From assembly GCA_003569365.1 (NCBI GenBank), contig BGOS01000017.1, forward strand, positions 838 to 64,837: a stretch of 64,000 nucleotides of DNA. Reading direction: 5' to 3'. The DNA comes from Anaerolineaceae bacterium. Its GTDB lineage: Bacteria > Chloroflexota > Anaerolineae > Anaerolineales > UBA11657. The notes beneath the pieces were generated by a model. The model saw only the letters and a list, made by a program, of their open reading frames with translations, searched no databases and was not told the DNA's origin. This document shows positions 1 to 14,559 of this stretch, in pieces (position 1 is the stretch's first letter; every line of letters begins with the position of its first letter). Both the position numbers and the translations under genes were made by a program.

Positions 1-182
1 GGTACTAACCGAGAGGCGGGCGGAGGTGTTGCCTTCACCTAAATTGCTAAGGTCCGATCCTCGCGACCTAGTTGGTGTGAGAGGTCGAGCAGTTGGCTGG
101 TCAAATCAGTGGCGCAGATTTTTTCACAGGGAATCAAGCGCGGAGATATTTAGTTGCCGGCAGCCGGATGCCCGCTGCAACA

Positions 183-493
183 CATGGTCCGTCGATGCAC
201 GCTGCGGCTTTGGGCGCTGAGCCGATCCCGGATCTGGAGTTCGGCCAGTCCCTGAATTGGTGACCCCGCACCGCTGAAGCAATAGTACTTGAGACGAAGC
301 GTGTAAGGGTGCCTGCCAGTGTCTGGCGGAGAGTAACTGTACTTGAAGCTGCGGGTGCTGGTGGAGTAGCGGCGATGGAGCGCGTGCAATTTTCTGTGAT
401 AATACTCTGCTATAGCTGAAGAAGCGGGATGATCTGTGTTGGGAAAGCGGGCGCAGTTATGAGAAAAATGTGTTCTGACTAGAGCGGTGTGGT
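183..493. repeat. R1, left copy of a ~310-nt inverted-repeat pair (partner at 4869-5186)
   Basis: The reverse complement aligns end to end with 4869-5186. GATCTGTGTTGGGAAAGCGGGCGC (431-454) is the exact rc of 4908-4931, and AGCGGTGTGGT (483-493) is the rc of 4869-4879. The outer end 183-202 matches the rc of 5167-5186 at 18/20. Overall identity is roughly three quarters by eye. Confidence 0.85.
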
Positions 494-708
494 GCCGCAT
501 TCTTTCAATGAAGTGGAGGGTAGCCTTGAATTTCCTATCCATCACTTTCTCGCACGAACATTGCCACATTCTTGGGTACCGTTTTGTCGGTGGACGACCG
601 ATCGTGGTTGGAGGTGAACCCGAGGCCACACAAAAAGAGATCTGCTGGTCAAACCCTAGACGCTCTACCTTCCAGTCGCCGGGCCAAGAGGCGTCCCAGA
701 AACGAGGG

Positions 709-1473
709 TCACAGGCAAGTAAAACCCCCGTCAACGACTACGTCCGAACCGGTAGTATAACTCGAGGCATCGCAAGCCAAATAGACCAAGGCTGGCATTA
801 GTTCGGTTGGCATTCCCATGCGCTTCATCGGTGTTGAAGCTTCCCAGGTGGGAATCCATTGCACCGCTGCCCGGGTCATTTCTGTTCCGATGTACCCCGG
901 GCTCAGAGAGTTCACCCGCACGCCAAAGGGTGCCCACTCGACCGCCAGAGACTTTGTGAGCTGCAGCACCCCCGCCTTTGAGGCGTTGTACGAAGATTGG
1001 GGTTGGGGAGCGTTGACAATGTGGCCCGACATCGAGGCCATGTTGATGACGGAACCCTTGCGATTCTTGAGCATCACCCGTCCAGCAGCCTGGGCCGTAA
1101 GAAACACGCCAGTCAAGTTGATGTCGATCACTCTTTTCCAATCCTCAAACGTGATCTTTTCAGCCGCCTCGTTGTGGCATATTCCGGCATTGTTAAACGC
1201 GATGTCGACCGTGCCAAACTCATCGAGAATCTGTTCAATCATCCGGTCTACCTCGCGCGGGTCGGTAACGTCGCAATTGATGCCTAAGGCCCGCCTGCCA
1301 ACGGCCTCGATGGCCCGAACGGTATCTTTCAGCCGCTCCTGGTTTCGATCGACAACAGCCACATCAGCCCCGGCCTCAGCGAGGGTCAGGGCCGCCATCT
1401 GACCGATTCCCTGAGCAGCCCCCGTTACAAAGGCCTTCTTCCCCGAGAGAGAGAACATTTCTACAATACGCAC
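709..1473 (-). CDS. Short-chain dehydrogenase/reductase (SDR)
   Basis: 254-aa ORF with the TGxxxGxG motif (FVTGAAQGIGQ) and catalytic YxxxK (YNASK). GGAGGAGG lies 7 nt upstream of the GTG start. Confidence 0.9.
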   Translation of the reverse strand: MRIVEMFSLSGKKAFVTGAAQGIGQMAALTLAEAGADVAVVDRNQERLKDTVRAIEAVGRRALGINCDVTDPREVDRMIEQILDEFGTVDIAFNNAGICHNEAAEKITFEDWKRVIDINLTGVFLTAQAAGRVMLKNRKGSVINMASMSGHIVNAPQPQSSYNASKAGVLQLTKSLAVEWAPFGVRVNSLSPGYIGTEMTRAAVQWIPTWEASTPMKRMGMPTELMPALVYLACDASSYTTGSDVVVDGGFTCL

Positions 1474-1513
1474 AACTTTACCTCCTCCAAAATTAGCGAC
1501 TGACTCGCCTGTA

Positions 1514-2311
1514 TCAGCCCTTTACGGCACCGAGTGTAAGGCCCTTCACTAAGGATTTCTGCGTAATCCAGCCCAAAACGATGGCCGGCAGAATTGCTAT
1601 TGTCGACGAGGCAGACAACTGGGCTATGAACATCCCCTGCTGCTCCCGGAAACGCGACATATAGACCGGAAGTGTAGCGGTATCATTTCCTGTAAGATTA
1701 AACCCCAAAAAAAACTCGTTCCAGATGAAAACCGCGACCAACAAACAGGCCGAAATGATTCCGGTGCGCACCAAGGGGACGGCAATGTGCATCATCTGCT
1801 GGAAGCGGGTGCAGCCATCTATTTCCGAGGCCTCCATGATTTCGGTGGGAATGTCGGCGAAAAACGAATAAAGCATCCACACCACGATGGGCACATGAAA
1901 ACCAACATAGGCCATCAAGAGGCCCAACGGGGTGGTGTTGAGCTGCCAGGCGTGGAACCAGGTGTAGAGAGGAATCAGGACCGCTACCGGAGGGAGCAGG
2001 ATTGTCGTTAGGAACCACATGTAGATCTTGTCGCGCGTTCCCTTCTTGCGAAAATTACCGAAGGCCAAGGCGAAGGCTGCTGGAAGGCCAAGCAGCAGGC
2101 AAAGCACGGAACTTGCCAGAACCTGGAAGATTGAGTTTCCAAGATAAGTGTAGAGACTCGCATCACTGAGAACTGACTTGTAGGTCTCCAGCGTGGGCGT
2201 GAACACAAAACTCGGGCTCACCGCCTGGTATTCCGTCTTGAAACCGGAAAGCAACATGTAAAGGATGGGCGAGAAATAGAGGATGGCAAGAGTATAGATC
2301 GTCACGGTCAC
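1514..2311 (-). CDS. Carbohydrate ABC transporter permease (MalG-like, CUT1)
   Basis: 265-aa multi-TM ORF with an EAA-loop motif (EASEIDGCTRFQQMMHIAVPLVRTG). An ATG at 2379 with a GGGAGA SD sits in another frame. The true start is probably 2379, with a 1-nt homopolymer indel between 2312 and 2376. Confidence 0.85.
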   Translation of the reverse strand: MTVTIYTLAILYFSPILYMLLSGFKTEYQAVSPSFVFTPTLETYKSVLSDASLYTYLGNSIFQVLASSVLCLLLGLPAAFALAFGNFRKKGTRDKIYMWFLTTILLPPVAVLIPLYTWFHAWQLNTTPLGLLMAYVGFHVPIVVWMLYSFFADIPTEIMEASEIDGCTRFQQMMHIAVPLVRTGIISACLLVAVFIWNEFFLGFNLTGNDTATLPVYMSRFREQQGMFIAQLSASSTIAILPAIVLGWITQKSLVKGLTLGAVKG

Positions 2312-2401
2312 ACGACGGTCTTGGTGGCTTTCCTGGCTCGGGCTGTAGGCTGAAGCAAAAGGGTCGGATTTAATCTCATGGTGGTTCTCCCTTGCCCTTC
2401 T

Positions 2402-3296
2402 TCAGAGATTGTTCTTTTTCATCGACTTGGAAACAAAGTTCACTGCGATCAAGGTCAGGACCACGGTCATTGTCGCTAGAGCTCCGGCCCTTCCCACATT
2501 GGAAGCGCTGAAAATCTGCATGTAAACTTGGTAGGGCAAGGTGTACGACCGGGTTCCCGGGCCGCCGGCCGTCGTGACAAGAATGAGTCCAAACTCCTTC
2601 ACGATGAAGACCAATCCCAGCATAACCGCTACCCGGATGTGGTTCATAATCAGCGGCAGCTTCACCCAAAAAGTGGATTGCCACCACTTGAGCCCGTCGA
2701 TGCGCATGCTGTCGACCAATTCCCCAGAAATCCCTTGGAGCCCCGCGAGCATGATGAGCACAAAAAAGGGAATCCACTGCCAGCAAAAAAGGAAAATGAT
2801 CACAGGCAAGGGGTAGTAACTCAGCAAATCGACGGGAGCCAGCCCCACCGCCTTCGCCAGAACACCATACCATCCAAAAGTCGTGTTGAGGATGGTTTTC
2901 TTCCAAATCACCCCGGTAACCGTCGACATTACGAAGAAAGGACCCATGATAAGGGTGCGAGCAATATTGACTCCAGGAATTGGGTGATCGAGCAAAATAG
3001 AAAAAAGAAAGCCGATCACGGTGCAAATCACGAGCGCCACGACCGTTACGGTGATCGTTTGCAAGACGATGCTGTAAAACTCGGGCACCGCAGTAAAGTC
3101 GGAAATTTTAAGAAAGAACAGATAATTGTCGATTCCTGAAAAACAATCGGTATATCGGGCCGGGCAAGGTTCCACCTTAAAGTGGATACAAGACGGTCAG
3201 CAAAAAAGGGATTTGCGTCATCACCGCAACCACAAAAATTGCGGGCAAGATGAACAGCCAGTCGTTCTTCTTTTTAGAGGTCTCGCTCCTTTCCAT
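2402..3296 (-). CDS. Carbohydrate ABC transporter permease (MalF-like, CUT1), with two frame breaks
   Basis: The main ORF is 2402-3175, with EAA loop DSMRIDGLKWWQSTFWVKLPLI. The N-terminus MERSETSKKKNDWLFILPAIFVV... starts at ATG 3296 in another frame. Adding one A to the runs at 3178-3180 and 3138-3142 restores ...LYPLLRWNLARPDIPIVFSGIDNYLFF..., which is typical of the family. Confidence 0.8.
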
Positions 3297-3307
3297 CTAG
3301 ACCCCAA

Positions 3308-3346
3308 AAGCCCAGAGTTTTCTGCAAGAGCAGAAACTCCGGGCTT
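3308..3346 (-). terminator. Intercistronic stem-loop between the SBP and permease genes (partial terminator or mRNA stabiliser)
   Basis: The arms 3308-3325 and 3330-3346 pair over 17 bp with one mismatch and one bulged T, around the loop AAGA. In the mRNA sense the stem is followed by UUUUGGGG. It lies between the SBP stop (3357) and the permease ATG (3296). Confidence 0.5.
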
Positions 3347-3356
3347 CGGAAACAGG

Positions 3357-4757
3357 CTACTTGCGGTAGCCTCCGTCGAGAGCTACCTGATTGAAGACAT
3401 CGTTTGTCTTCTTGATGGCCTCGTCGAGCGTGATCTTGTCGACAACGTAATCGGCAAGGTACTGGGTCATTTGTGTGCCGGCATCGGCAAACTCAGGAAT
3501 GGCTATGTACTGCAGACCAACATAGGGCACGGGGTCAATGGTCGGCTTGGTGAAGTCCATGGCCTTGAGCGCCTTGACGGTCATCGCCGCATAGGGAGTC
3601 TTGGAGTAAGCTGGCAAAGCATAGGTTGAGGTGCGCGCGGCAGGCGGCGTGCTCGAGGCCGGTGGGGTCAAGGTCTACCGACATCTTGGCGTATTCCTTC
3701 GAGGTGGCCCAAACCATGAAGTCGAAGGTGGCCTTCTTTTTGGCATCGCTGCTCTTGGGATTGATTCCCATAGCCCAGTTCCACAGCCAGGAAGTGTTGG
3801 TGGTCATCTTCTGGTGAGGAGCCATGGCATAGCCTACTTTGCCTGAACCTTGGACTCAGCGCCTTCCAGCGCGGGGGCAATGGAGGTGGCGTCATAGTAG
3901 ATTCCCGCTTTTCCGGACTGCATGAGGGCAATACACTCGTTGTAGGTGTAGGAAAGGATGTCTGGCTGGCCAGCATCGCGAAGAATATTTTTGTACATGG
4001 CCCAAGCGGCCCTTTGTTCGGGGGTATCAACCGTGGCGTTCCAATTCATGTCGTAGAACTTGCCGCCAAAGGCATTGACGATGGTTACGAAAGGAGCTCC
4101 GCTCATTCCCCAGCCGGGAGCGCCGCGCATGGTCATGCCTACGATGCCGTTGGCAGGATCATTGATCTTCTTGGCCAGTTCGTAGATCTGGTCCCATGTT
4201 GGTTCGTCGGGCATGGTGAGGCCCTTTGCAGCGAACAAATCCTTGTTGTACATGATGAACGAGCTCTCACCATAGAACGGGAGGGCAAACGACTGTCCAT
4301 CAACAGCCAGCGACCCCACCATTCCCTGAATCAAGTCAGGCCGATCATAGGCAGTCAGCTCGCCCGCGGGCATTGCCTTAAAGTAGGGTTCCAAGTTTTC
4401 CAGCCAGCCATTCTTGGCCCAGGAGGCAGCCTCATAGGGCCCGATGAAAAACATGTCGTAGCTCGTCCCGCCAGTCGACGCTTCAGTGGTCAACTTTTGG
4501 CGAAGGTCGTTTTCCGGTAGAACTGCAATGTTGACGGTTACTCCAGCTGCCTTGTACTTTTCCTTGGCAAGCTTGCTCAAAGCTTGGGAAATCGGGTTGT
4601 TCGCCAAAGCAATGTTGATGGTCTGGGCGGGCGCTTCGGCTGCAGGAACAGCCGCAGCCGGTTCAGCAGCAGGTGCTGGCGCGGGACTGGCACAGGCAGC
4701 CAGCACCAGCGCAGTAATGACTGCCCCCATCATTGTGGACCACAATTTCTTTTTCAT
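3357..4757 (-). CDS. Extracellular solute-binding lipoprotein (sugar ABC, family 1), with two frame breaks
   Basis: Three consecutive ORF pieces (3834-4757, 3535-3825, 3357-3671) read as one SBP. It has a signal peptide with lipobox (LVLAACAS) and an Ala/Pro linker. The breaks lie near 3850 (TT run) and 3664-3667 (G run). AAGGAGA SD lies upstream of ATG 4757. Confidence 0.8.
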
Positions 4758-4868
4758 TATTGTTATCTCCTTCGTATCAAAATCAACTCCAAAACAATCG
4801 ACACTGGGAACCGCTCAGGTGGCTATATCTGTGCTACTTTTCTCTTTTTCCCCTTCTACAATTACTAG

Positions 4869-5186
4869 ACCACACCGCTTTTTTCAAAGCCCGATTTTCT
4901 GGCAACCGCGCCCGCTTTCCCAACACAGATCGTCAGGCTCCTTCAGCTATGCCAAAACTTTACCACAGAAAATATCCCGCGCTCCGTCGCCTTCACTCCA
5001 CCAGCACCCCGCAGCCCCAAGCACTAGCTGCTCGCCGCCAGAACCTATCGCGCACTCTTACACGCGGCGGCGCAAGCACTATTACTTCTGCGATGCGATG
5101 CGGTGTCACCAACCCAAAGTTTGGCCGAACTCCAGGTCAGGGTTTGGCTCAGGGCCCACGTCCGCCGCGTGCATCAACGGATCATG
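4869..5186. repeat. R2, right copy of the inverted-repeat pair (partner at 183-493)
   Basis: See R1. The inner ends of both copies face the 4.4-kb cassette. Confidence 0.85.
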
Positions 5187-5236
5187 GTTTGATTCACAAT
5201 CCAAGTCTGCCGTCTGGTCAAACTCCAGCTCAGTAA

Positions 5237-5720
5237 TTGCCTCGAATTCGGTATCTGGTGACAAATGGCAATCCCTTAGCACCGCGCACGCCTGAGGAAT
5301 TCGAGCAGTTGCCCGATGTAGCGGATACAATTCAAAAGCTAAAAGATGCGGGGTATCTTGTAGTTGCGGTCTTGAACCAGCCGCCTATTGGAAATGACCG
5401 GGTCAGTAGAACGCTTGTAGATCAGATGCATGCGCAGTTGAATGCCTTGCTGCCTGTAGATAACATGTAAGTCTGTCCGCACAATTACCGACCATGAGTA
5501 TCCGCCAACTGTGTGGGCTGCCGGTGATGTTGTGCAGGAACATGTGCGGATTAGCGCTAAAAAACTGCAATCGGGCAGCTAGGCAGTGAGGCTGGCAATA
5601 TAGGCGCCGGTGCTCCAGATGCGCGCAGCCGTCGAAGCCACGCTTGGCTTTGTGGTTGACAACCGCGCGCTACTGGTTGGATTTCAACTGACGCCGTAGT
5701 GAAGCGCAGCCGGTATTTTG
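5237..5720 (+). pseudogene. HAD-IIIA phosphatase (GmhB/histidinol-phosphatase-like) pseudogene
   Basis: The 77-aa ORF ...EEFEQLPDVADTIQKLKDAGYLVVAVLNQPPIGNDRV...LLPVDNM resembles the GmhB core. An in-frame TAA sits where IYYCPH has Tyr (VDNM*VCPH). Downstream, the C-x-CRKP-PGML and GD...AG remnants are spread over different frames with further stops. Confidence 0.55.
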
Positions 5721-5823
5721 TGCACCGGCGCAGTGGGTAATGGCTGAAGGGTGCAACAGGCCCCGATAGCACTGTCAGCATAACTCGCTGCCCACATGCA
5801 GCCCATCACACGCGCCGCAGGTT

Positions 5824-7727
5824 TTATTCCACTAACACCCGCAGCGGCAGAATAAAGTGGTCCACCGCCGTCCCGCTGCCAACCTGCCCGGCCAACCGCA
5901 TCCCGGAATCGCGCTCGTACATGCCAATCTCTAAACGGTACACACCAACCGGCATGTCCGCCGGCAAAGCAATGCTGTGCGTGTCAATCAGCGTCTCGCC
6001 CGGCTGCCAGCTGTTTGTGGGGCAGCTGCCATTGCGCGGAATGCCATCGCCATCCAGTAAGTCAAACCATCTGGCGCAAGCAGATGCACAAACACAGTGT
6101 ACGAGTTGGCAATCGGCGCGCGCGCAAGCCAGAAGAGCGTGAGCTGCAGCTGGCCGCCGCGCTGCACAGCAGAACGCGCCAGCCGAAAACCCGTCAGCGA
6201 GATATCAGATCCGAAGTCCACGCGGTATGGTTGTTGCGCAGCCAGTGAGCCCGCCGGTGTGTCGAAGGTCTGCACGCGAAACCCGGCCACAAACTGGTCG
6301 TCTGTCTTTTCACAACATGCCTGCAGCCATTCGCCCGCAAAGCCTTGCGGGTCGTACAGCGCGCTGGGCGCAAAGAAGAACCGGACGTGCGCATAAGAAT
6401 CGCGCAGTTGTGCCAACTGCGCTGCGGCTGCGGCCCCGCCAATTTCTGCCAGCGGTGCCGCCGGCACGGCCTCCACCGGCATCGGCGCCCGGTAGTAATA
6501 ATAAAATGCCGGGTCCGGCAGGTTGAGCGCAACCACCTCATCCGCCCGCGCAGTCCGGACAAGATAGTCACTCACTGCGCGCCAATCCGGACTCTTGCTG
6601 TAGCGCGGGTTGAAGTAATAGTTGGAGAGTGACAATAATGAGATGGCGATGAAAGTTGTGTATGCAAAACTGCGGCCGGCTTTTCCCCACCAGCCCGCGG
6701 CCGCCAGCCCGCTCAGGCCGGCTGCCGCAAGCAGGCACACGCCGGGCAGGGCCACCAGCGCGTATTGCTCTGTAAACACCGGGCGGTAGAACGAAAGCAA
6801 CCACAACCACAGCGGCGTGCCCACGGCCAGCGCCAACACCCACGCCGCAGCCCGCAGCGCGCGCCGCAGCAAAAGCACACTGCCCCAAATGAGCAGCGCA
6901 GCCAGCACCAGCGCGCCAATGGCCTGATTCATCGGTGACGCACCGGCGCTCGCTTGCCCGGCACTGAAGACCGTCAGTAAGCGCCACAACACTTCCATGC
7001 TGCCTGCGGCACTGATCCAGCTTTTGGAGTGACCAACCAAGAGCGGCGCAACATATGCGAGCCACGGAAGTTGGGCAAGTGTGATGCCGGCACTCATCCC
7101 AAATGCAGCGCGCCAACGTGCGCGCGTGTGCGCCGCAACAATCAGTGCCAGCAAAATGGAGGCGAGCGCCAGCGCCGCAAAATAGTGCGCGAAAAGCGCC
7201 AGCCACCACAAGCAGCCCGCCCACACCCAAAGCTGCCAATCCCGCTTTTGCGCAGCGCGCCATGTAAGCCACGCCGCTCCCAACACCAGCGCCGCCAGCA
7301 GCGAGTAAACGCGTGCATCCTGTGCATACCAAACAAGAAATGGATTGAAAGCCGCCAGCACAGCCGCACCAGCTGCCGCCGGCTTGCCAAGCCACGCCCG
7401 GCCCAGGCGGTAGGTCAACGCCACCAGCACTGCACCAGCCAAAACCGATGGCCAGCGCAACGCCAGTTCACTGCTGCCGGCAATTGCAATCCAACCCTTC
7501 AGTGCCACAAAATATAGCGGCGGGTTGGGCTCGGATTGCAGCATGAGCGCCACCATCTCGCGTACGGGTTTGGCGGCCAGCGCCACGCTGAACCCCTCAT
7601 CGCCGCGCAACGCCGGGCGCCCCACCGCAAACGCCCGCAAACCAAAGGCCAGCGCCAGAATCCCAACCGGCAACAGCCCGGCAGCGTTGCCACGCTGCGT
7701 GCTGGAAGAATGTTTTGAGGCAGTCAT
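5824..7727 (-). CDS. Glycosyltransferase family 39 (PMT_2/ArnT-like) membrane protein, with one frame break
   Basis: Multi-TM N-terminal region (...RGDEGFSVALA...NPPLYF...FNPFLVWYAQDARVYSL...). The C-terminal part continues in another frame as ...GDGIPRNGSCPTNSWQPGETLIDTHSIALPADMPVGVYRLEIGMYE... down to the stop at 5824. The break is near the A run at 6064-6066. The start is taken as MTASKH at 7727. Confidence 0.75.
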
Positions 7728-12120: not shown

Positions 12121-14559
12121 ATGAAACGCATTGACGCAGCGCCGAACATTCGCTCAGCTGCAGTTGTTGGCTCCGGCACCATGGGCGGCGGCATTGCTGC
12201 GCTGCTGGCGGGCGTGGGCATTCCCACGCTGCTGCTGGACATCGCCCCCGCCGAACTCACGGCAGCCGAGTCTGCACAGGGGCTGCCGCTCTCAGCACCG
12301 GCTGTGCGCAACCGGCTCGTCAACAACGGGCTCGCCGCCATCAAGGCCGCGCGGCCCGCAGCCCTTTTTACACCCGCCGCAGCTGCGCTGCTCACAGTTG
12401 GCAACCTGCAAGATGATTTTGCGCGCCTCGCGCAAGTGGATTGGGTGATTGAGGTGATCGTTGAAAACTTGGAAGCAAAGCGCAATTTTTATGAACGCCT
12501 GGAGCAGGTGCGCCCCGCGGGCCAGCTTGTAACCAGCAACACTTCCGGCCTGCCCATTCAGCAGTTGGCGCGCGGCCGCTCCATGGACTTCCGCCGCAAC
12601 TTTTGCGGCACGCATTTCTTTAACCCGCCGCGCTACCTGAAGCTGCTGGAGGTAATCCCGACTGCGGACACGCGCCCGGCGCTGGTGCAGTTTCTGCAAA
12701 CGTTTGGCGCACAGCGTTTGGGCAAGGGCGTGGTGTTGTGCAAAGACACGCCCAACTTTATCGGCAACCGCATTGGCGGCGCTGCCAATGGCTTTCGCAT
12801 GAGTTACGCGCTGGACAACGGCTACAGCGTGGAGGAAGCGGATGCAATCAGCGGCCCGCTGATGGGCTATCCACGCACGGCAGTTTTCCGGCTGATGGAT
12901 TTAGTAGGCATTGATGTGGCTGTGATGGTGAGCAACAACATTGCGCGCGCGCTGCCGGGCGATGCAGCCGGCGGGCGGGCTGACGGCCATGCCGGCATAC
13001 TGCTGCAAGAGATGCTGCAGCGCAAATGGCTCGGCAACAAAACGCGCATCGGCTTCTACAAAGAGGTGGCTGCGCCCGGTGGCGGCAAAGAGTTTTGGGC
13101 ACTGGACCCCGCCAGCATGACGCACGCAGCACCCGCAAAAGTGCGCTTCGAATCGATCGGCGCTGTGCGCAAGATTGCCGACCTTGGCGAACGCCTGCGG
13201 GCCTGGGTAAAACACACGGACCGCGCCGCGCAATACGTCTGGCACACGCTGGCGTTTGCGTGCAGCTACAGTGCTGCGCGCATTCCGGAAATCAGCGACG
13301 ACATTGCTTCGATTGACGCCGCCATGCGCTGGGGCTACATGCAGCAGGCCGGCCCGTTTGAATATTGGGACATGCTGGGCGTGGCCACAACCGTGCGGCG
13401 CATGCAACGCGATGGCTACGCGGTAGCTCCGTGGGTCAAGAAGATGCTGGCAGCCGGCCACAAAACTTTTTACCGCCAGGGTGTGCATGGGCGCGAGCAG
13501 TACCACCCCGCCAAGCGCAAGTATGTGCCGGTGGCGGGCGAGGCCGCACAAATTAGCGTGGCCACGCTGCGCGCTGCCAAGCGCAGCCTGCAAAGCAACC
13601 TTGAAGCCGGCCTGTTTGACATGGGTGACGGTGTGCTGCTGCTTGAGTTTCACGGCAAAGCCAACACGCTGGGCAGTGGCGTGCTGCAGCTGGCGGAAGC
13701 CGCACTGCAGCGCCTGGAGCATGGCAGCCAGTACACGGGCCTTGTCATCGGCAATCAGGGCGAGCTTTTTAGTGCCGGCGCCAACATTGACCCGCAAAGC
13801 CTGCTCTCCGGCAGCGAGCCGCCGGCTGTGATGGTGGAACGCCTCACGCGCGCGTTTCAAGATTTGATGCAGCGCCTGCGTTATTGCCCAAAGCCCGTCG
13901 TCGCTGCGCCCTTTGATCGCACACTCGGCGGCGGCACAGAAGTTTGCCTCGCTGCGACGCGCGTGGTGGCACACATGGAGCTGTACATGGGGCTGGTGGA
14001 GACCGGCGTGGGTTTGGTGCCCGCTGGCGGCGGCTGCAAGGAAATGCTGCGGCGCGTGCTCAATCCCCTGATGCGCCTGCCAAATGCCGACGCGCTGCCC
14101 GCGCTTGAGCAGCTGCTGCAGGTTATCGGCGGTGCGCGCGTAAGCAGCAGCGCGCGCGAGGCGCAAGACCTGGGCTTCCTGCAGCCCGGCGACCGCATTG
14201 TGATGGACCGCGCCGCACTTCTGGCCGAAGCCAAGCGTGAGGTGCTGCACCTTGCGCACTGCGGTTACAGCGCACCGGTGCCGGAATTAATTTATGCGGC
14301 AGGGCGTGACGCGCTGGCCGCGTTGCAAATGGGCCTGTACCAAATGGAACAGGGCGGCTTCATCTCTGCGCATGACGCGCTGGTGGGGGCGCAGCTGGCG
14401 CGCGTACTGTGCGGCGGCGAACTGGCAATGCCCGGCTGGGTGCCGGAACAGCACATCCTTGATCTCGAGCGCGCAGCGTTCGTGGAATTAATGCAGACCG
14501 CCAAAACATTGGAGCGCATTATGCATACGCTTGGCACTGGCAAGCCGCTGCGCAACTGA
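12121..14559 (+). CDS. Fused 3-hydroxyacyl-CoA dehydrogenase / enoyl-CoA hydratase family protein (FadN-like)
   Basis: 812 aa with an N-terminal NAD fold (VVGSGTMGGGIA), the HAD signature region (HFFNPPRYLKLLEV) and a C-terminal crotonase-like domain. Confidence 0.85.
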   Translation: MKRIDAAPNIRSAAVVGSGTMGGGIAALLAGVGIPTLLLDIAPAELTAAESAQGLPLSAPAVRNRLVNNGLAAIKAARPAALFTPAAAALLTVGNLQDDFARLAQVDWVIEVIVENLEAKRNFYERLEQVRPAGQLVTSNTSGLPIQQLARGRSMDFRRNFCGTHFFNPPRYLKLLEVIPTADTRPALVQFLQTFGAQRLGKGVVLCKDTPNFIGNRIGGAANGFRMSYALDNGYSVEEADAISGPLMGYPRTAVFRLMDLVGIDVAVMVSNNIARALPGDAAGGRADGHAGILLQEMLQRKWLGNKTRIGFYKEVAAPGGGKEFWALDPASMTHAAPAKVRFESIGAVRKIADLGERLRAWVKHTDRAAQYVWHTLAFACSYSAARIPEISDDIASIDAAMRWGYMQQAGPFEYWDMLGVATTVRRMQRDGYAVAPWVKKMLAAGHKTFYRQGVHGREQYHPAKRKYVPVAGEAAQISVATLRAAKRSLQSNLEAGLFDMGDGVLLLEFHGKANTLGSGVLQLAEAALQRLEHGSQYTGLVIGNQGELFSAGANIDPQSLLSGSEPPAVMVERLTRAFQDLMQRLRYCPKPVVAAPFDRTLGGGTEVCLAATRVVAHMELYMGLVETGVGLVPAGGGCKEMLRRVLNPLMRLPNADALPALEQLLQVIGGARVSSSAREAQDLGFLQPGDRIVMDRAALLAEAKREVLHLAHCGYSAPVPELIYAAGRDALAALQMGLYQMEQGGFISAHDALVGAQLARVLCGGELAMPGWVPEQHILDLERAAFVELMQTAKTLERIMHTLGTGKPLRN

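Follow-up and report, generated by a model that had tools for sequence, protein, structure and literature searches.

Two probable IS91/ISCR-type element ends form an inverted-repeat pair around a polyol-type uptake cassette in a freshwater Anaerolineaceae genome

Inverted repeats around the uptake cassette

We analyzed a 64,000-nt stretch of an Anaerolineaceae genome (contig BGOS01000017.1, hereafter the window), near the left end of which an inverted-repeat pair flanks a polyol-type uptake cassette. The cassette occupies 709..4757 on the minus strand. By gene calls and Pfam matches in identical contigs, it consists of the genes for a CUT1 substrate-binding protein (SBP; 3357-4757, 466 aa), two permeases (2402-3296 and 1514-2379) and a short-chain dehydrogenase/reductase (SDR; 709-1473, 254 aa). 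The SDR is recorded as 'sorbose reductase SOU1', and GBL37603.1 is among the protein records of the window. An earlier sequence-only reading had described the repeats and had suggested that they were either a structured RNA or the terminal repeats of a non-autonomous mobile element. In agreement with that reading, the interval between the two arms holds no genes other than the SDR gene and the three of the CUT1 ABC transporter, all on the minus strand. Its GC content is 53.6%; the low-GC tract is not limited by the arms, however, but runs past the left arm and off the window.

The pair itself proved to be real. Positions 183-493 aligned with the reverse complement of 4869-5186 as one blastn high-scoring segment pair of 318 columns with 76.1% identity and an E-value of 5e-61, and a repeat search returned three colinear inverted segments (178-274/5095-5191, 267-338/5026-5097 and 353-493/4869-5009) of 75-79% identity. 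No third copy of the arm was found by blastn within the window. A MAFFT alignment of the arms contained 69 mismatches (transition:transversion, 38:31) and 7 gap columns (5+1+1), and recovered each of the conserved blocks reported earlier, namely a shared 24-mer (431-454 / 4908-4931), an 11-mer at the inner tips (483-493 / 4869-4879) and 18/20 identical positions at the outer tips. The divergent segments between the blocks had been described as equal in length; they are not strictly so because of the three indels, of which the one near 338-340 is probably a 1-nt homopolymer error of the window record. Comparison with short-read contigs traced one of the 1-nt gaps between the arms to a single-base indel of the window at 340. 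The strand of the arms has a G+T-rich bias. Since a perfect run of 24 or more is expected by chance with a probability of ~9.5% in a 318-nt alignment at 76% identity, the 24-mer alone was not significant and the block pattern of the pair alone was uninformative. The homology was found to exceed the original boundaries on both sides, extending to 177 and 540 in the left arm and to ~4816 and to 5261 or beyond in the right arm.

Transposase-gene tails in the outer part of each arm

We built a profile from the aligned small open reading frames (ORFs) on the G-rich strand of several copies of the arm, and a search with it identified more than 240 unannotated small ORFs; hundreds of such tail ORFs are present in metagenomes. 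The longer ones read ...CGGRVRLVGFITEPATVRQILEHVGEP..APARSPP...PELEFDQTANL..AEPIPELEFDQTLGW-stop, with a fuller pattern of ...CGGRVRLVGFITEPATVRQILEHVGEP..APARSPP...EAIPELEFDQTANL.AEAGHDRL.H.AGVDAEPIPELEFDQTLGW-stop. They matched the C-terminus of the NCBIfam model ISCR_clade_Ia (P0156, E 1.8e-7; P0253 and P0256, ~1e-17) and the end of Pfam Y2_Tnp, which P0256 carries. When P0156 was compared with plasmids by tblastn, it matched genes annotated 'IS91 family transposase' at 35-39% identity (E 1e-12). The annotated transposase of one such insertion sequence (IS), ISPps1 (plasmid pOS401, AP026971.1; Pseudomonas/Comamonas plasmids), ends ...PDYEVDQRVNW-stop.

Both arms carry tails of this kind. 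The left transposase-gene (tnpA) remnant (177..263, plus strand) comprises the last 28 codons (177-260), ending in ...HAAALGAEPIPDLEFGQSLNW, and a TGA stop at 261-263; its tblastn matches were residues 32-68 of P0142 (76%, E 2e-14), 196-223 of P0256 and 93-141 of P0134. The right remnant (5106..5330, minus strand) retains no fewer than the last 51 codons (5261-5109) and a TGA stop at 5108-5106, and matched P0142 (75%, E 8e-25) and residues 173-223 of P0256 (59%, E 9e-15). This region is called as a 58-aa gene on related contigs. Both tails end ...PDLEFGQ(S/T)L(N/G)W-stop. The DNA of the right remnant was 80% identical to positions 1946-2159 of contig L027, a stretch that is contiguous with a near-full-length pseudo-tnpA; in L027 the pseudogene thus runs straight into a 3' end that shares 80% identity with the right arm. 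By this chain of matches to IS91-annotated genes and to ISCR_clade_Ia, homology of the arms to the IS91-family (Y2 HUH) transposase holds at the level of sequence, through the C-terminal tail only. The earlier remark that no transposase is present therefore stands for intact genes and fails for fragments, since a transposase-gene 3' end makes up the outer portion of each arm.

An intact relative was found in L036, an Anaerolineales contig from a metagenome-assembled genome (MAG), in which a 510-aa ORF matched Y2_Tnp (1e-26) and Zn_Tnp_IS91 (2e-15). Its C-terminus is extended by a long stretch in which the PELEFDQT motif is duplicated. It scored 248 bits against ISCR_clade_Ia (cut-off 925) and 86 bits against transpos_IS91 (cut-off 125), below the curated cut-off in both cases. 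No intact transposase with Zn_Tnp_IS91 and Y2_Tnp was present in the 64-kb window or in the 20-kb locus, indicating that the window copies are remnants rather than elements. No other transposase parts were detected in the window by tblastn with ISPps1 and partial relatives, a Pfam scan of the two window tail ORFs gave no match, and the 5' regions of L036, L027, L022 and L019, which were used to look for the opposite element end (terIS), had no match in the island described below or at its edges.

The oriIS motif and the element ends

The copies share ~280 nt downstream of the tnpA stop, ending in a sharply conserved terminal motif. In the left arm this non-coding 3' end (264..540, plus strand) contains the 24-mer at 431-454, a decayed promoter and, at 526-540, the motif TTGAATTTCCTATCC, with the element end placed at ~540 by alignments with copies at other loci. 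The motif begins 263 nt past the stop codon (277 nt to its last base), and this was its single no-mismatch occurrence in the window. The right 3' end (4816..5105, minus strand) contains the 24-mer at 4931-4908, a decayed promoter and a degenerate terminal motif at 4837-4816 that agrees at ~11/23 positions; decay of this end has obscured the exact terminus and target of the right copy. We also considered the 24-mer as a clade-wide signal and rejected it, as it is conserved within the arm subfamily only.

The 15-mer TTGAATTTCCTATCC occurs unchanged in ISPps1, 172 nt past the stop codon, and follows tnpA at 9 other independent loci, where 150-280 nt separate it from the stop. The same spacing from the tail, 150-280 nt, holds for L019, L027b (the second of two copies in L027), L030, L034, L035, L040, L041 and L046. 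The flanks of its copies diverge right after the motif. IS91-family elements have two functionally different ends, and transposition starts at oriIS and proceeds towards tnpA; they insert beside a tetranucleotide with T at position 2, and have no target duplication and no inverted repeats (PMC13181058). In relatives of the arms the four bases after the motif were GTCC, GTCT, GTTT, GTTA or GTAA (GTCC in ISPps1). Published oriIS sequences are GTGGTTTATACTTCCTATACCC for ISCR1 (PMC13023784) and GCGGTTGAACTTCCTATACC, 236 bp after the stop, for ISCR27 (bioRxiv 10.1101/2021.01.14.426698). The left motif matched the latter at 13/15 core positions. From its sharing with ISPps1 and relatives, the divergence of its flanks and its likeness to published oriIS sequences, we assign TTGAATTTCCTATCC as the oriIS of the clade to which the arms belong, an assignment made by sequence comparison.

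Copies at other loci

When JGI metagenomes were scanned with a central 20-mer of the arm, three contigs were returned. L018 was the orthologous locus, L016 carried two further copies in direct orientation, and L017 carried one copy, 74 nt ahead of the gene for a peptide SBP. L027 was found to hold a solo copy (L027b) besides L027a. Thus, a search for further copies of the arm found them at unrelated loci (two in L016, and those of L017 and L027b). The right arm was 79.3% identical to L027a and 78.4% to L027b, and the left arm was 75.4% identical to L016b and 75.7% to L027a, so that the identity between the arms (76.1%) is no higher than that of an arm to copies at unrelated loci. An exact 20-mer scan of one genome per species gave no match, and no DNA similarity to the arm was found in plasmids.

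In L027, an ADH_zinc_N gene lies together with small ORFs between two ends of the same family (1946-2312 and 4714-5041). These ends are in direct orientation, and one of them is still attached to the frameshifted near-full-length tnpA. An identical 95-aa ORF, P0126, was found on short contigs that mostly represent the same locus, with only L059 differing downstream; this is weak evidence for recent mobility of the short form. In L019 (1708-2083) tnpA is internally deleted, with the equivalents of ISPps1 residues 9-41 abutting residues 443-518 and followed by an intact promoter and oriIS. This copy may be a non-autonomous deletion derivative.

A putative outward promoter in the family

Relatives of the arms carry a TTGAC(A/G/T)-N16/17-TAtnaT promoter that reads outward and agrees at 9-11/12 consensus positions, scored as match to the consensus only. 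Its -10 hexamer ends at a fixed distance of 16-18 nt before the oriIS motif. The promoter is conserved across this clade of IS91/ISCR-like elements from freshwater MAGs and is not clear in the plasmid element ISPps1 (7/12). Near-consensus sigma70-type outward promoters lie ~40-60 nt before oriIS in L019, L030, L034, L035, L040 and L041, and at ~1640-1670 in L016, ~6170-6200 in L017 and ~2240-2270 in L027.

Both window copies retain decayed versions with 7/12 consensus positions and 17-nt spacers. In the left arm these are CTGACT (475-480) and CATTCT (498-503) on the plus strand (475-503), and in the right arm TTGAAA (4887-4882) and TAATTG (4864-4859) on the minus strand (4887-4859), pointing at the SBP gene. 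Neither was called in a promoter scan of the window. The SBP ATG lies 58 nt past the end of the right remnant, and most copies with readable surroundings likewise have a co-oriented gene downstream: the peptide SBP in L017, a 225-aa ORF after L016a, ADH after L027a and a nucleoside hydrolase after L027b. The left arm faces the 3' end of the SDR gene instead. In ISCR1, POUT promoters were experimentally shown in the 232-bp oriIS region (PMC6218425). The promoter spacer of the left remnant also forms a terminator-like hairpin (484-498, plus strand), GCGGTGTGGTGCCGC, with a T-rich run behind it; neither the right copy nor the other copies have this hairpin.

An 8,783-nt island and its empty site

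Gene order at the locus was read from contigs of Japanese lake metagenomes that are 98.9-99.7% identical to the window. On the window minus strand, the strand of the operon, a PMT_2 glycosyltransferase gene is followed by a 1,068-nt spacer with the right arm, the SBP gene, the two permease genes and the SDR gene, then by a 584-nt spacer with the left arm, a class II aldolase gene, an ALO-type FAD oxidase gene, ~770 nt, and a gene for a 653-aa protein of unknown family. The low-GC tract spans everything from the 1,068-nt spacer through the ~770-nt stretch. All SDR-carrying contigs (15/15) had the same arrangement.

A look-up of the 3-hydroxyacyl-CoA dehydrogenase gene (window 12121-14559) identified an empty site in L048, a 39-kb scaffold from the same sample as an island-bearing contig. 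The distance from PMT_2 to the unknown 653/668-aa gene was 83 nt in L048 and 8,783 nt in L001, while the flanks of the two were 98.1% and 98.8% identical. Positions 3613-3695 of L048 are replaced by 5654-14436 of L001, between two convergent host genes, and both forms occur in the same lake sample. The present/absent unit is therefore an 8,783-nt low-GC island (53.2% GC, against 64.0% and 62.5% in the host flanks) that some strains of this freshwater Anaerolineaceae population have and others lack. Within the window it occupies 1..5816, with its right edge at 5816|5817 and its left edge ~2.96 kb beyond the window start, past the aldolase_II and ALO genes. Comparison of L048 with L001 revealed no target duplication at the island edges, and no terIS-like sequence was found there. 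Since both IS remnants are internal to the island, the 183-5186 block that the sequence-only reading had put forward is not the unit of gain or loss.

Coding and RNA tests of the arms

Mismatches between the arms were even across the three codon positions in every indel-free segment, with no codon periodicity. We tried the arms as a coding paralogue and rejected this, given the even mismatches, indels that are not multiples of three, and an amino-acid identity below the nucleotide identity. The earlier view that the pattern speaks against a decaying gene duplicate is right as regards cellular genes and wrong for the outer 80-150 nt of each arm, which are a decaying transposase-gene fragment.

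Structured RNA was likewise looked for. A search of the whole window against Rfam at the gathering threshold gave no match, and neither did one of 1-6000 at E<=1. Fold z-scores against shuffled sequences were -0.49 and -0.34 for the two strands, no better than chance. RNAalifold on six copies gave -5.55 kcal/mol with a covariation term of +0.97, which is unfavourable.

Origin of the pair

We conclude, with a probability of about 0.88, that the arms are the old, truncated 3' ends of two separate IS91/ISCR-type rolling-circle IS copies, and that the pair looks like an inverted repeat because these copies lie in opposite orientation. The cassette would then be passenger DNA and not part of the IS, and independent insertion of the two copies is the best reading of their relation. 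The pair is ordinary transposon debris, neither a new RNA nor a new mobile cassette. On this account each relic would keep only the 3' end of its element, i.e., 28 or 51 codons of an HUH-Y2 tnpA, ~280 nt of non-coding DNA, a sigma70-type promoter facing outward and the oriIS terminus. Transposition of active relatives would begin with a nick by the transposase at oriIS, from which replication would run back through tnpA to terIS, while the promoter would read across oriIS into the neighbouring gene, as ISCR1 POUT does. Both relics sit within an 8.8-kb island that holds the polyol ABC transporter, SDR, aldolase and ALO-type oxidase genes together with gene fragments. Both window copies are presumably inert, since tnpA and terIS are gone, the promoters are at 7/12 and the right oriIS is decayed. 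The island itself was probably acquired horizontally as low-GC foreign DNA.

Several observations weigh against this conclusion. The window and the 20-kb locus yielded neither an intact transposase nor a terIS; the family assignment is therefore carried by the tail and the element end between them. The terminal motif of the right copy is degenerate, and the left oriIS is followed by ATCA, in which the T at position 2 is retained while A replaces the G of the GTnn in relatives. The host genome, a MAG, is not closed. Lastly, the promoter spacers of the two arms have in common an 11-mer, AGCGGTGTGGT, which is missing from L016a, L017 and L027a/b.

It is this shared 11-mer that leaves some room for a single IS91-like remnant, or plain non-coding DNA, having been duplicated locally in inverted orientation around the cassette and having drifted to 76% without any function. 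The presence of only two copies in the window and the decay of both promoters would fit such a history as well. However, the arms (76.1%) are less alike than the right arm is to L027a (79.3%) or L027b (78.4%) and hardly more alike than the left arm is to L016b (75.4%), their 5' truncation points differ (28 versus at least 51 codons), and oriIS is perfect in the left arm but decayed in the right. We regard a local duplication as improbable. The suggestion that the arms are terminal repeats of a non-autonomous element was correct in so far as they are ends of mobile elements, with a transposase-cut oriIS and copies elsewhere, but they are the same end of two copies and not the two termini of one, and the cassette is not the unit. 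That they nevertheless serve a non-autonomous composite element as a working terminal inverted repeat, so that the 4.4-kb cassette is moved as a unit, is very unlikely. The inverted geometry around a lower-GC cassette, the derivation of the arms from a mobile element and the intact left oriIS would agree with it. Against these, the empty site defines an 8,783-nt unit with other edges and both arms internal, all 15 SDR contigs share one arrangement, there are no target-site duplications, and the IS91 family has no terminal inverted repeats and starts from oriIS towards tnpA (PMC13181058), a direction leading away from the cassette in both arms. In addition, homologous cassettes of the Spirochaete type have no arm-like DNA near them; their SBPs, annotated 'sorbitol/mannitol' in Spirochaetia MAGs, are the nearest homologues of that of the window, at 83% identity, and stand in the same SBP-permease-permease-SDR order. 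The resemblance to composite transposons and miniature inverted-repeat transposable elements is one of superficial geometry only, of related inverted sequences around passenger genes. A structured non-coding RNA encoded once on each strand, with the blocks paired or protein-bound, was suggested by the alternation of conserved blocks with variable segments and by the G+T-rich strand bias. We consider it scarcely credible, because the Rfam searches, the folding energies on either strand and the positive covariation term all speak against it and the blocks are accounted for by the tnpA tail, the promoter hexamers and oriIS.

Returning to the two IS copies, rolling-circle transposition from either oriIS towards the former tnpA would run away from the cassette and towards the island edges. 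This is compatible with assembly of the island from one-ended events but does not demonstrate it. A bolder proposal is that truncated ends with oriIS and an outward promoter proliferate as short trans-mobilisable modules, arising for example from prematurely terminated rolling-circle transposition, that deliver promoters and help to assemble islands in freshwater Chloroflexi, and that this island was built by two opposed one-ended events terminating at its edges. The intact left oriIS, the genes flanked by two ends in L027 and the many short metagenome copies are compatible with such modules, but we hold the proposal to be unlikely.

Relation to known elements

The elements to which the arms belong resemble ISCR elements such as ISCR1 and ISCR27 in several respects. 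The L036 relative fits ISCR_clade_Ia better than transpos_IS91 (248 versus 86 bits), oriIS lies 150-280 nt past the stop (232-236 bp in the published cases), ISCR27 (GCGGTTGAACTTCCTATACC) has the same oriIS core, TTGAAyTTCCTAT, passenger genes lie directly downstream of oriIS, and a putative promoter near oriIS would, like POUT of ISCR1 (PMC6218425), be directed outward into genes of the same orientation. On the other hand, 248 bits is far below the cut-off of 925, which sets the relative apart as another clade. These elements come from uncultured freshwater bacteria (Anaerolineaceae and others) rather than from clinical Gammaproteobacteria, the neighbours are transport and catabolic genes rather than resistance genes, and the window holds truncated, decayed ends only. 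ISPps1 has the identical 15-mer TTGAATTTCCTATCC, then GTCC, a C-terminal PxxExDQxxxW-stop and 35-39% identity to the tail ORFs, but it is intact (518 aa), and its 3' non-coding region is shorter (172 nt) and otherwise unalignable with the arms. With IS91, IS801 and IS1294 the relatives share a rolling-circle HUH-Y2 transposase with Zn_Tnp_IS91 and Y2_Tnp, and would share distinct oriIS and terIS ends without inverted repeats or target duplication and a T-2 tetranucleotide (PMC13181058), here GTCC, GTCT or GTTT. They differ from these in the score of the L036 relative, which at 86 bits is under the NCBIfam IS91 equivalog cut-off of 125, in its long C-terminal extension with duplicated PELEFDQT, and in a longer non-coding region on the oriIS side.

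A candidate for a new RNA or mobile cassette is thereby replaced by an annotation as two solo ends, both from the oriIS side, of an ISCR-like element of the IS91 family. The analysis documents a little-described ISCR-like clade from uncultured freshwater bacterioplankton, with the oriIS 15-mer of ISPps1 and a conserved putative outward promoter, whose ends adjoin transport and catabolic genes much as ISCR1 adjoins resistance genes. It also provides a clean filled/empty pair for an 8.8-kb polyol-utilisation island that segregates in one lake population.

Other features of the island

The island is a mosaic. A 3'-end pseudogene fragment of a PMT_2-like glycosyltransferase gene lies at 5484..5660 (plus strand), with blastn matches to L036 1419-1573 (72%) and L016 2116-1971 (83%) and stops in its translation. 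The homologous fragment abuts an IS91-like copy in L016 (1971-2116) and lies just upstream of the intact tnpA in L036, and may be flanking DNA carried by one-ended transposition. Past the left end of the window, at the far end of the island, L002 11135-11437 holds a fragment of a GH51 alpha-L-arabinofuranosidase gene (ASD1_dom) with an adjoining 39%-GC stretch. No credible remnants of the Spirochaete-type neighbour genes (ADH, HisKA_3/GerE) were detected by tblastn or blastn. A 38-nt palindrome (L001 8125-8162, window ~3310-3350) separates the SBP gene from the first of the permease genes, at a site where ABC operons often have a stem-loop.

Comparison of the window with the independent short-read contigs L001-L010 revealed 13 single-base indels (8950, 7848, 6067, 4854, 3844, 3658, 3187, 3144, 2311, 641, 340, 115 and 44), 11 of which were 1-nt deletions in short homopolymers. 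They give apparent frameshifts in the SBP, both permease and PMT_2 genes and at the start of the aldolase gene, and are most likely consensus errors of the window assembly rather than marks of pseudogenes.

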